Source: Kerstersia gyiorum
Lineage (GTDB): Bacteria > Pseudomonadota > Gammaproteobacteria > Burkholderiales > Burkholderiaceae_B
NCBI RefSeq assembly: GCF_004216755.1
Contig: NZ_SGWZ01000004.1
Coordinates: forward strand, 125,144-144,058
Reading direction: 5' to 3'
DNA length: 18,915 nt
The notes beneath the pieces were generated by a model that saw only the letters and a list, made by a program, of their open reading frames with translations, made no database searches and was not told the DNA's origin. Positions 2,775 to 5,159 of the stretch are shown piece by piece. The position numbers and the translations under genes are program-made. The number at the start of each line of letters is the position of its first letter. The first letter of the stretch is position 1.

Positions 2775-2973
2775 GGTTCCGGTGAGCACCAATGTTCGAC
2801 TATGTTAGCTAAAACAATGAGTTATCAAATTAGGTCGTGATCATTGATCGACTATATATGCCATTGCTGTCGACGTTTCGTCGTCAGTTTTATAGACGTA
2901 GCGCATTAAATTCGATACGAATTATGATCTTAGTTAAGAGGAAAATTCAATGCAGCCCAATGTCGGGCCGATA

Positions 2974-5034
2974 TTAAGTTATATTTACGGATTCGGTATT
3001 AACAAAGCCCAAGCCTAATATCTGAATTTTCTTTGCGTCATCCCCTAAGTCTAATTTCCAGCGTCGCTCCATAAACGACAATAAGCGAATACCTCTTTCG
3101 ACAATGTGGTGCGCTGTCCATTCAGACTCTTGTGCCACTTCTATTTCAGAATAGCACCCATAAAGATAGCCGGCTTTTTTGGCCTTGCTACCTTTCTTTT
3201 CATCAAAAGACCGATTACCTAAGGCTGAATTTTTTTGGCGAGATAAAGGAACTAAATTTCCAATAGAGTTCTTTAATACATTCCGTTCCTTTACGGAGTA
3301 GCATTTAAACCTTGCGTCCCACTGAGTTTTAGAACTCTTTTGTGGATATATGTGTTCTATGGTGACATAGTCCGATTCAAATTTCTCTTTTGAAAACTCT
3401 TCCCAATCTAACTTTGAACGATTACTCCTTGATGCAGCAAAAAGCTCCTGCTCATATTCAAATAGGAAATAGCGAACAGCACCCCATCCATAATAACCGC
3501 TATTTTTTCCAAATTTTTTCAAAGCATCTAGGAAATCTTTTGATTTTATGAATTTTTCGCAAATATCATGCATTGAGTTGCCGATAGCTGCAAGAGTTTT
3601 CTTTCCTGCGATATAGCGCGCAGCATCCTCCAAGAAATCAATGTCTCTAAAAAACCAACCGGAGAATGATTTAAAAAACAAAATTCGTTCTAGAGTCTCG
3701 AGAAAATTTACTCTCTCCTGAAGAGAGTTTTTGCTCTTGTAAAGAGAGACTACCATTACAGACGCGTCGTACACAGAAAATCTACGTATGCGTTCTAGCA
3801 ATACTTTCTCATGGCTAGAGAACTTCCCGTTTCCAGGGTCTTGGGTTTGATAATATATTTGTACGGTTTTCTTTATATCTAAAGCATACTCGTGTATTTT
3901 CTCTGCTGACAGTTCAATGTTGACTTTATTGAATACTGTATCAGAGTCAATGTCAATTTCATCGGACTCAGTGCAAGAATCACTGCATTCAGACTTGTTA
4001 GCTTCATTGCCGTACAAATTTCTTACATTAAAAACGCTTTCAAGGAGGTAGTCCTTGTATCCATCATTGTGTCTGTATGCGTAAAGGCCTAGGCTGTTTG
4101 AGGCTTCAGCATAATCCGATTTTGGTAGATTGACATTAAAATATAGAATAAATTGTAAGAGAAGGAATTGGTCGTCAACAAGCCTGCGCTTAGGGTTCCT
4201 GCCGATGTAATGATAGGCGGATTTCCAGCACTCATTGATTGTTTTTCGAAGGCGAGACCTGTCGTGCTTGCTGTCCAAGTCTTCAGTGTTAAACTTGGTA
4301 GATAAATAAATAAGTCTGTTTTTTAAAAGTTCAAGGTGAGAAAGAGGCTTTCCTCTGTTGTTCATAGTCTCGAAGGTGACAAAAACGTCTATATCTTCAG
4401 AGATAGTGAAAACATTGAACAACATGTTTTGAGATACTTTCGTATAAACCTCCTCCAATTCAGCGAAGGACATGGCAGAAAGTTTCTCATCAAAAAAATC
4501 TCTGGCTGCCTGCAGATTGTATGTGTAAATGGTGTCTTCAGGGAGCTCATGATTATTTGACTGTTCTTTAAAAATTTTTGTTTTTAAAAATTCATAGCTT
4601 GGATTGTCTTTTTCATATCCAAAAACATATGATCGCGATATTCCGCCATCTCGCGTTTGAAATATAAATCGTTTCCTGACTTCGTCAACAGTGTCGTAGT
4701 TAAGGGTTTTTCCTTCTGGAGTATGATCCAAAATTGATTGAATAAGAATAATTGCAGTGGTGAGACGCTGCTGCCCATCCACAACGAAATATGGCTTAAA
4801 GTTTTTTGACTCTATTATCCACAGATCATCTTCCCATATTTTATAGATGGCAGGCGAAACTGCTTCCAATGTAAGAACGCCTGTGTAATGCTTCTGTCCA
4901 AACCCAAGTTGACCTAAATCATTCCAAAAATCCTTTAATTGCTTTGGTCCCCATGAGTAGCCACGCTGATAGTCAGGTATTCGATAGAGATACTCATTAA
5001 AAGCTTTTGAGAGTGATAGAAGCTCAGTTTGCAT
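2974..5034 (-). CDS. GmrSD-family (DUF262 N-terminal + DUF1524 His-Me finger C-terminal) nuclease-like protein; candidate modification-dependent type IV restriction / anti-phage enzyme
   Basis: The 686-aa product has N-terminal IPDYQRGYSW and VVDGQQRLTT (DUF262 signatures). The C-terminal TIEHIYPQ ... NSIGNLVPLSRQKNSALGNRSF is the DUF1524 HNH-like signature. The gene and its flanks are strikingly AT-rich compared with the rest of the window. Confidence 0.88.
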   Translation of the reverse strand: MQTELLSLSKAFNEYLYRIPDYQRGYSWGPKQLKDFWNDLGQLGFGQKHYTGVLTLEAVSPAIYKIWEDDLWIIESKNFKPYFVVDGQQRLTTAIILIQSILDHTPEGKTLNYDTVDEVRKRFIFQTRDGGISRSYVFGYEKDNPSYEFLKTKIFKEQSNNHELPEDTIYTYNLQAARDFFDEKLSAMSFAELEEVYTKVSQNMLFNVFTISEDIDVFVTFETMNNRGKPLSHLELLKNRLIYLSTKFNTEDLDSKHDRSRLRKTINECWKSAYHYIGRNPKRRLVDDQFLLLQFILYFNVNLPKSDYAEASNSLGLYAYRHNDGYKDYLLESVFNVRNLYGNEANKSECSDSCTESDEIDIDSDTVFNKVNIELSAEKIHEYALDIKKTVQIYYQTQDPGNGKFSSHEKVLLERIRRFSVYDASVMVVSLYKSKNSLQERVNFLETLERILFFKSFSGWFFRDIDFLEDAARYIAGKKTLAAIGNSMHDICEKFIKSKDFLDALKKFGKNSGYYGWGAVRYFLFEYEQELFAASRSNRSKLDWEEFSKEKFESDYVTIEHIYPQKSSKTQWDARFKCYSVKERNVLKNSIGNLVPLSRQKNSALGNRSFDEKKGSKAKKAGYLYGCYSEIEVAQESEWTAHHIVERGIRLLSFMERRWKLDLGDDAKKIQILGLGFVNTESVNIT

Positions 5035-5084
5035 CGTTATACCTTATAAGTACATGTGCTCTTCAATTGGAAATATCTGAACAA

Positions 5085-5114
5085 ATTATAGCTTCTGCTA
5101 CACAAGAAAATGAA
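5085..5114 (-). promoter_or_regulatory. Candidate sigma70 promoter for the GmrSD-like gene
   Basis: On the minus strand there is a perfect TATAAT (5090..5085) with TTCATT 18 nt upstream (5114..5109). An AAGG SD lies about 7 nt before the ATG at 5034. This is a sequence match only. Confidence 0.3.
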
Positions 5115-5159
5115 AGATCTTCAAATTGATGAAGCTTAAGCCTATGCAATGTTAACCAG

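Follow-up and report, generated by a model that had tools for sequence, protein, structure and literature searches.

A GmrSD-family gene as probable defence cargo in the variable slot of a filamentous prophage of Kerstersia gyiorum

The stretch of 18,915 nucleotides (nt) from Kerstersia gyiorum considered here as a whole (the window; contig NZ_SGWZ01000004.1, positions 125,144 to 144,058) carries a filamentous prophage of 12,861 bp, 2775..15635, between 46-nt tRNA-Cys repeats. Near the end of this prophage that is distal to its integrase lies a block of low guanine-plus-cytosine (G+C) content with a single long gene, which encodes a 686-amino-acid (aa) protein of the GmrSD family. Judged from its sequence context, the block is an accessory module in a hypervariable slot of the circular phage genome, placed between the morphogenesis genes and the attP arm. 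The explanation as a whole, an inovirus slot module encoding a stand-alone GmrSD-family defence enzyme, is likely. The narrower proposal, a stand-alone type IV nuclease with presumed dependence on DNA modification, has somewhat better than even chances. Type IV restriction carried by prophages and defence loci in inoviruses have each been described before, and the finding adds no new category. What is new is the combination and the lineage, namely secretin-encoding, tRNA-integrating inoviruses of the Burkholderiales in which one slot accommodates many different defence systems.

The GmrSD-family protein

The 686-aa product of 2974..5034 (minus strand) is a secure member of the GmrSD family. 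Both of its Pfam matches exceed the gathering score: GmrSD_N (PF03235) at 5e-31 over residues 9-241 (108.8 bits against a cut-off of 33.2), and GmrSD_C (PF07510) at 1.7e-17 (64 bits against 23). A preliminary description of the window had named the product a DUF262/DUF1524 nuclease and proposed a profile search as a check. That search, PADLOC, motif alignment and fold matching all uphold the identification, and the four motifs then quoted (DYQRGYSW, DGQQRLTT, EHIYPQ and GNLVPLSRQKN) are all found in the translation. VVDGQQRLTT occupies residues 84-93 and fits the pattern (I/V)(I/V)DGQQRLTT. Across 38 homologs of 47-79% identity, D86-G87-Q88-Q89-R90, E560-H561, N593 and N602 are invariant; DGQQR and E/D-H-N-N are the family-defining GmrSD motifs (PMC4619093). 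The RLFDS motif does not occur in the translation. A protein search placed 6,811 of 8,000 scored candidates at E <= 1e-20.

From sequence and model, the protein reads as a single-chain enzyme. A ParB/Srx-like DUF262 NTPase domain (DGQQR; residues ~9-241) would be joined by a helical linker of ~290 aa (within ~250-540) to a C-terminal DUF1524 His-Me (HNH-type) nuclease domain (~506-652; E560, H561, N593, N602). The AlphaFold2 model (mean confidence score, pLDDT, 79.4) has an alpha/beta N-domain, a helical linker of ~290 residues and a C-terminal beta-beta-alpha region. It is near-wholly helical from ~233 to 535, and the linker length falls within the 200-400 residues expected for GmrSD. Only three PDB entries match the model fold significantly: DndI (9jfl, 2e-11), SspE (7drr, 6e-8) and BrxU (7p9k, 1e-4). 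A sequence search against solved structures agrees, returning DndI (9jfl, 1e-9) and SspE (6jiv).

Among PADLOC models the best are those of HEC-06 (8e-41), followed by Orf5 and SspE (SspE up to 1.6e-20). Three HEC-06 profiles, PDLC04154 (8.1e-41), PDLC04155 (4.1e-38) and PDLC04157 (1.1e-36), each match two stretches of the protein, best over residues 2-263. PADLOC comes without a curated cut-off, so the assignment to the HEC-06 subtype is provisional.

Several known systems share this architecture. The type IV enzymes EcoCT GmrSD and Eco94GmrSD have the same single chain of DUF262, helical linker and DUF1524 (Machnicka et al. 2015, PMC4619093). They are likewise encoded by a stand-alone gene on a prophage. 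E. coli CT596 yielded the original GmrSD, from a prophage-like element. Kinship of the K. gyiorum protein with these classical enzymes is distant, seen by profile and fold, and its carrier is a single-stranded DNA (ssDNA) filamentous phage rather than a tailed prophage. HEC-06 confers phage protection on E. coli, which is lost when its DGQQR and EH motifs are mutated (Payne et al., bioRxiv 10.1101/2024.01.29.577857). DGQQR and EH(I)xP are common to HEC-06 and the present protein, and neither has RLFDS. HEC-06 was discovered embedded in Hma systems, whereas here the gene stands alone in an inovirus slot, and the best-matching stretch lies mainly over the N-terminal 250 residues. BrxU (PDB 7P9K; PMC8565348) belongs to the same fold family (Foldseek 1e-4) and is an enzyme of type IV logic; its similarity to the present protein is below phmmer detection, and the prophage offers neither a BREX neighbourhood within the element nor an RLFDS motif in the protein.

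The prophage and its hypervariable slot

An integrative filamentous phage, or inovirus, occupies 2775..15635 in the 3' end of tRNA-Cys; it encodes a secretin, Zot, a Rep_trans initiator and a tyrosine integrase of its own. Of the features expected of an inovirus (a Zot/pI ATPase, pIII-, pVI- and pVIII-like small genes, a rolling-circle initiator and a small genome), it shows Zot, DUF2523 and Rep_trans matches, together with a secretin, in 12.9 kb. ARAGORN finds a single tRNA in the window, the intact tRNA-Cys(GCA) at 15590..15663 (minus strand), whose 3' 46 nt (15590-15635) form the integrase-proximal att repeat. The integrase-distal repeat at 2729..2774 (minus strand) is an identical copy of this 3' part of the tRNA, and the empty site joins exactly here. 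In five other K. gyiorum assemblies, the host metallophosphoesterase gene leads directly to tRNA-Cys, then to an AraC-type regulator gene and a YadA-like adhesin gene; after in-silico removal of 2775..15635, one collinear match of 96-99% runs over the junction in the five. The whole element is absent from these strains, so the GmrSD gene came with the phage. The preliminary description was right to place the block at the integrase-distal (attL) end, but its picture of a cassette inserted into a resident prophage does not hold. A Logan contig of 12,875 nt (L002/L004), both ends of which lie inside the att repeat, was considered as a circular form and is read as an assembly break at the repeat, not as proof. 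This phage has no close counterpart among deposited phages: an 8-kb stretch of its DNA, searched by blastn, matched none of 50,697 of them, and the best Zot match is 38% identical.

The AT-rich block is sharply delimited. In 300-nt windows, G+C is 0.56-0.63 up to ~2700, 0.36-0.42 at 2701-5100 and 0.55-0.59 beyond 5101. In 40-nt windows it drops from 0.50 to 0.30 at ~2790 and rises from 0.35 to 0.58-0.68 at ~5140-5160, which agrees with the abrupt switches at about 2790 and 5150 reported earlier. The block was also correctly described as compositionally foreign and limited to one gene: it has one long open reading frame (ORF), and G+C at third codon positions is 0.37 in the GmrSD gene against 0.55-0.73 in phage genes and 0.69-0.73 in host genes.

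The left composition edge is not the edge of the cargo, as had been assumed. The segment from 2775 to ~2887 can be aligned in register with the ~115 att-proximal nt of L108 and L132, two tRNA-Cys phages with other cargo, and is read as an AT-rich attP arm (2775..2887, minus strand). It contains GTCGAACATTG (2790-2800) and GTCGATCAATG (2842-2852), two minus-strand copies of the motif GTCGAWCAWTG 52 nt apart, which from their sequence are probably integrase arm-type sites. The sequence AAGTCGAttAtTG is positionally conserved in two other phages that integrate at tRNA-Cys. Phages that integrate at tRNA-Met have TGTCAAC(N)4-5GTCAAC...CATAGC in the equivalent arm instead. With its left limit set at the start of the arm homology to L108 and L132, and its right limit at the end of homology to L020, L097, L098, L099 and L018, the cargo proper would span about 2888-5170 (2888..5170, minus strand, G+C ~0.38). 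This variable module would comprise the GmrSD gene and its untranslated flanks, ~135 nt upstream and ~85 nt downstream, the latter including a terminator-like hairpin (2953..2970, minus strand; a consensus match only) just past the stop codon.

These limits bear on the 7-bp repeat CAATGTT, present at 2790-2796 and 5147-5153. The preliminary description gave its positions correctly and suggested, among other readings, a target duplication. A discrete mobile cassette, transposed or site-specifically inserted and leaving this duplication, would account for the repeat near both composition edges and for the lack of the GmrSD gene in the closest backbone relatives. It is nevertheless highly improbable. 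CAATGTT occurs four times in the window where 3.6 copies are expected, and two 50-nt boundary windows have some 7-mer in common in 9-11% of random trials; the repeat is thus no more than chance. Backbone homology ends at 2774 and 5171, and both copies lie 16-24 nt inside non-conserved DNA, off the junctions. Read on the opposite strand, the left copy falls within the first arm motif, which is conserved in L108 and L132. The block has no transposase, inverted repeat or internal att, and homology to other GmrSD copies ends with the coding sequence. Chance frequency and the position of the left copy in the arm motif rule out a target-site duplication.

Equally hard to credit is that the block forms an independent small integrative element, or a satellite, lined up in tandem with the phage at tRNA-Cys. 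Tandem pile-up of elements is common at tRNA sites, and L020, L097 and L018 do have a second cargo unit between the tRNA and the integrase gene (int). The window, however, holds only two att copies; near 5150 the best att-like sequence has a local score of 9, against 10.2 +/- 1.7 in random regions; and in L013 the same gene follows the secretin gene with no att between. A second tandem element was rejected on the number of att copies and the lack of an att-like sequence near 5150.

Comparison with relatives points to a slot whose contents change while the backbone is kept. L020, L097 (Corticimicrobacter populi) and L098 are collinear with 5171..13609 of the window at ~88% nt identity; the match ends at 5171, ~20 nt from the composition switch, and gives way to unrelated low-G+C DNA. 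L013 and L017 have backbones 84-91% identical in nt and the same tRNA-Met att, and L013 has GmrSD where L017 has SIR2 (PDC-S25, 5e-85). The position between the secretin gene and attP/int is common to the window, L013 and 21 relatives delimited by tRNA-derived repeats of at least 29 nt. In these 21, the slot, taken from the secretin stop to the distal att, measures 1.1-6.5 kb and is usually below the core in G+C. The expectation that related prophages would mostly lack the GmrSD gene and carry other cargo in the same place is borne out.

The cargo of the slots, surveyed as 82 ORFs of at least 90 aa, is diverse. It includes Hachiman (HamA and HamB) in a Ferribacterium metagenome-assembled genome, Lamassu (LmuA and LmuB) in Deefgea, PD-Lambda-5 A and B in an Oxalobacteraceae genome, NsnA/PD-T4-2 in Paenalcaligenes with the same tRNA-Cys att, PDC-S06 in Cupriavidus necator, and a UvrD-like helicase with DarT and an ADP-ribosylglycohydrolase in Comamonas thiooxydans. 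AbiEii, RmrA and a PD-T4-6-type kinase are also found, as are the toxins RelE, HigB, PemK and RES. A defence protein recognised by PADLOC is present in at least 10 of the 21 att-delimited slots, with toxins of toxin-antitoxin systems in further ones; this is a plain count. In the Deefgea phage (L145 16910-18660), LmuB is apparently split: a 369-aa ORF matches only positions 219-561 of the LmuB model, three LmuB-matching ORFs are counted, and this Lamassu cargo may be decaying. A 60-62-aa ORF is conserved at the slot of tRNA-Met phages (L013 7963-8145, L017 13834-14019, L019 10514-10696, L111 12344-12526) with the pattern ..DG(L/V)INLP(K/R)E(I/L)S.K..GK.I.Y(S/T)LE.DRSI.LH.S... In L013 it is located upstream of GmrSD, in L017 downstream of SIR2, and it has no homolog in the window. 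At a guess from its sequence, it may be a small AbrB/MazE-like regulator.

A comparable locus is known in Vibrio. In Vibrio inoviruses, defence genes are enriched at a defined variable accessory locus (PMC11630473), and 'pHVRs' have been described between zot and xafT, where the morphogenesis module borders on the lysogeny module (PMC12715192). The likeness consists in a fixed slot between modules that is hypervariable among close relatives and holds defence and toxin-antitoxin genes. The Burkholderiales phages differ in having their own tyrosine integrase and tRNA targets, with the slot after the secretin gene, in contrast to the zot-xafT position and XerCD/dif of Vibrio. By analogy, the slot described here can be regarded as the Burkholderiales counterpart of the Vibrio inovirus defence-rich variable locus. 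Rousset et al. 2022 (cited in PMC11630473) reportedly described defence hotspots, with interchangeable cargo between conserved flanks, in the temperate P2-like phages and P4-like satellites, which are tailed phages and their satellites. In the literature searched, no paper contains 'GmrSD' and 'inovirus' together.

Distribution, mechanism and alternative functions

The closest homolog of the GmrSD protein, P0002 (79% identical in aa, 73.5% in nt), is itself encoded by a related filamentous phage. It lies on L013, a 10.5-kb contig with the order integrase, Rep_trans, pIII, DUF2523, Zot, secretin, 60-aa ORF, GmrSD, att. The secretin-Zot module of L013 is 82% identical to that of the window at the DNA level, the integrase only 64%; the contig ends in the 3' half of a tRNA-Met-like sequence, not tRNA-Cys. 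Its GmrSD gene has a G+C of 0.35 against 0.51 for its phage. The two phage-borne proteins are mutual nearest relatives, and the next clade (73-76%) occurs in non-phage contexts; P0003, P0004 and P0007, the next-closest homologs, have non-phage or plasmid-like defence neighbourhoods. DNA homology to other GmrSD copies is confined to the coding sequence. In the region 6026-11900 of L016, a 56%-identical homolog sits beside a reverse transcriptase gene (RVT_1) and a PRTase-CE/wHTH gene on a contig with RepA_C, which looks like a plasmid-borne defence cluster.

Within the phage lineage the gene is rare. A Zot-anchored scan collected 80 IMG/VR loci and 79 GTDB species-genome loci, 159 in all and mostly from Burkholderiales; tblastn (1e-5) over these loci, with a family profile run over all their ORFs, found GmrSD in L013 only. 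Pfam flags one other, distant GmrSD_N (DUF262) protein among the 82 cargo ORFs. IMG/VR holds 59 viral loci with GmrSD relatives (29-60% best-segment identity), mostly on contigs of 20-90 kb and often near contig ends. None of them encodes a relative of the Zot, secretin or Rep protein of this phage, which sets them apart from its inovirus lineage. Tailed prophages of Streptococcus suis (INPHARED MN270275.1, MK448811.1 and related entries) have a full-length homolog, 37% identical over 96%, annotated as 'RloF' or hypothetical.

The modules may move by recombination. The backbones nearest each GmrSD phage carry other cargo, yet the two GmrSD genes are sisters, and from this we infer that slot modules are swapped among related phages by recombination rather than transposition; the original junctions would since have eroded.

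The proposed mechanism follows the family. The GmrSD gene would be expressed from the prophage, and NTP binding or hydrolysis by DUF262 would license the nuclease domain. The DUF1524 His-Me finger would then cut incoming phage DNA with non-canonical modifications, in the type IV manner of GmrSD, BrxU and HEC-06. Being unmodified, the host chromosome and the DNA of the phage itself would be spared, the double-stranded replicative form included, and the lysogen, hence the prophage, would be protected. Modification-dependent enzymes of this family spare unmodified DNA (PMC4437046, PMC8565348). The activity expected of the GmrSD family is NTP-stimulated cutting of DNA with hmC or glucosyl-hmC (PMC4619093). 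The earlier suggestion that the carrier might escape through its ssDNA replication is therefore not needed: with host and phage DNA unmodified and thus spared, the ssDNA life style has no necessary part in self-tolerance.

A stand-alone enzyme is also what the surroundings suggest. As described earlier, the element offers no partner gene: Pfam searches find no methylase, ATPase, BREX, Dnd or Ssp gene inside its att boundaries. This bears directly on the least unlikely of the alternatives, that the protein senses phosphorothioate in the manner of the effectors SspE and DndI; it would then read marks left on host DNA by chromosomal Dnd/Ssp genes, nick or cut unmarked invading DNA, and not be stand-alone. 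DndI and SspE, which are GmrSD-like proteins (PMC11662687), are the best sequence and fold matches among solved structures (PDB 9JFL, 6JIV/7DRS), have the same two-domain plan, and the SspE models of PADLOC match as noted above. Such effectors, however, work with adjacent ssp/dnd modification genes, and no dnd or ssp gene occurs in the 12.9-kb element, in the window or in 20 kb of its flanks; the GmrSD homologs in L014, L015 and L016 are likewise not beside dnd/ssp genes. HEC-06 models far outscore SspE models, and identity to DndI is only ~15% (13-15% for SspE and DndI together). Autonomy is further favoured because the gene travels on phages with different hosts and tRNA targets.

Quite unlikely, too, is that the gene serves the phage itself, by excluding competing plasmids or inoviruses or as an addiction-type module, or that it is a silent passenger. 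In relatives, toxin-antitoxin genes abound in this slot, and the low G+C could attract xenogeneic silencing. The intact catalytic motifs and the full-length ORF in both phage copies, despite 21% aa divergence, argue instead for selection on function, and the family members tested by experiment act against lytic phages (bioRxiv 10.1101/2024.01.29.577857; PMC8565348).

Certain points weigh against a stand-alone defence enzyme of type IV. Expression and activity of the GmrSD gene are predictions from its sequence. The preliminary description credited the gene with its own TATAAT-type promoter; the consensus box is indeed there, as a candidate -10 element at 5085..5090 (minus strand) 51 nt upstream of the ATG, but its -35 is weak. 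The promoter scan missed it (5090..5085, minus strand) and itself runs near background, with 9 sites in the region against 6.4 expected, so that in this AT-rich stretch the candidate promoter does not exceed chance expectation. The gene is present in just two of about 160 related phages, and the flanks of the two copies are non-homologous. The nearest solved structures are the phosphorothioate-sensing DndI and SspE, not a classical type IV enzyme, which makes modification-dependent cutting only the likeliest of several family mechanisms. The substrate specificity of HEC-06 is not established in the available part of its preprint (bioRxiv 10.1101/2024.01.29.577857).

The slot extends the known range of defence-loaded variable loci to a separate, largely uncharacterised phage lineage, in which the GmrSD nuclease is one interchangeable load. 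Hosts of this lineage include Kerstersia, Corticimicrobacter, Paenalcaligenes, Castellaniella, Comamonas, Undibacterium, Cupriavidus and others. Natural 'isogenic' comparisons are available where one backbone occurs with GmrSD, SIR2 or other cargo, and the prophage-free K. gyiorum strains suit testing of the effect of a 2.3-kb single-gene module on the lysogen. Unannotated slot genes of the relatives are candidates for new defence functions.

The 155-nt element and other features of the window

The cargo slot is bordered by a non-coding phage element of 155 nt (5171..5324, minus strand), which is G+C-rich and strongly structured. Copies of 79-93% identity occur in L020, L097, L098, L018, L099 and L111, with variable cargo directly downstream in the same orientation. 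L020 (254-411 and 13370-13525), L097 (1758-1932 and 13744-13926) and L018 (163-353 and 9980-10170) each have two copies; single copies lie at L098 9892-10045, L099 12996-13152 and L111 2933-3053. The second copy in L020, L097 and L018 (86-90% identical) is located between the tRNA and int and heads another cargo gene. The element ends in ...CCCTGCAACCCTGCC(A/T)AGCGGCGAGCG, past which the phages diverge; backbone homology ends at the same nucleotide, after ...GCGGCGAGCG.

The element folds into nested hairpins (ssDNA fold z = -5.6). An Rfam scan matched the tRNA alone and gave no match to the element, which thus falls outside described RNA families. Compensatory change is seen in only 2 of 52 predicted pairs, the copies being highly similar to each other. 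Its candidate roles are those of packaging signal, minus-strand origin, regulatory leader and recombination anchor. Its position and structure also raise the idea, which is very doubtful, that the folded element is the entry site of an integron-like cassette-capture system shuffling defence genes in these ssDNA phages, comparable to integron integrases acting on attC or XerCD on the folded attP of CTX-phi.

The core of the prophage (6735..13057) was assigned by Pfam and by collinear relatives. On the minus strand it comprises the gene IV-like secretin (6735-7982; Pfam Secretin 5.8e-23), Zot/pI (7983-9035; Pfam Zot 8.4e-29), a DUF2523/pVI-like protein (9039-9326; Pfam), a pIII-like core gene (9334-10854), small coat or ssDNA-binding ORFs, and the Rep_trans initiator (11954-13057; Pfam 1.2e-15). 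On the plus strand, 13800..15537 includes a 247/249-aa ORF and the tyrosine integrase gene (14530-15537; Pfam Int_N 7.8e-35, Phage_integrase 2.8e-19), which ends 52 nt from the tRNA.

Accessory genes lie between the core and the 155-nt element. A Ser/Thr-phosphatase-like metallophosphoesterase of 227 aa (5374..6057, plus strand; Pfam Metallophos 1.6e-13) has a host paralog (46% identity, E 1e-67) that adjoins the integration site at 1903-2613 (plus strand). The phage gene is 90-93% identical in L020, L097 and L098 and ~60% in Comamonas phages, and absent from L013 and L017. An 81-aa lipoprotein-like ORF occupies 6050-6295 (minus strand). A 77-aa ORF (6464-6697, minus strand) just downstream of the secretin stop is bracketed by a perfect 21-nt direct repeat, TATTAGCGATTTCACGTACTC, at 6417-6437 and 6711-6731; the same perfect pair occurs in L020 at 11968-11988 and 12284-12304. 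These repeats may act as operators or iterons, or may be a scar left by a small insertion.

To the right of tRNA-Cys, low-G+C stretches (0.37-0.43) at 15900-16650 and 17700-18150 lie around the AraC-type regulator gene (16658-17674); they are host DNA, being collinear at 96-99% with prophage-free strains. Head-to-tail repeats of 21/42 nt at 18695-18915 run past the end of the window and fall, by position, in the 5' part of the YadA-like adhesin gene, whose product measures 2476-3075 aa in other strains and varies in length between them.

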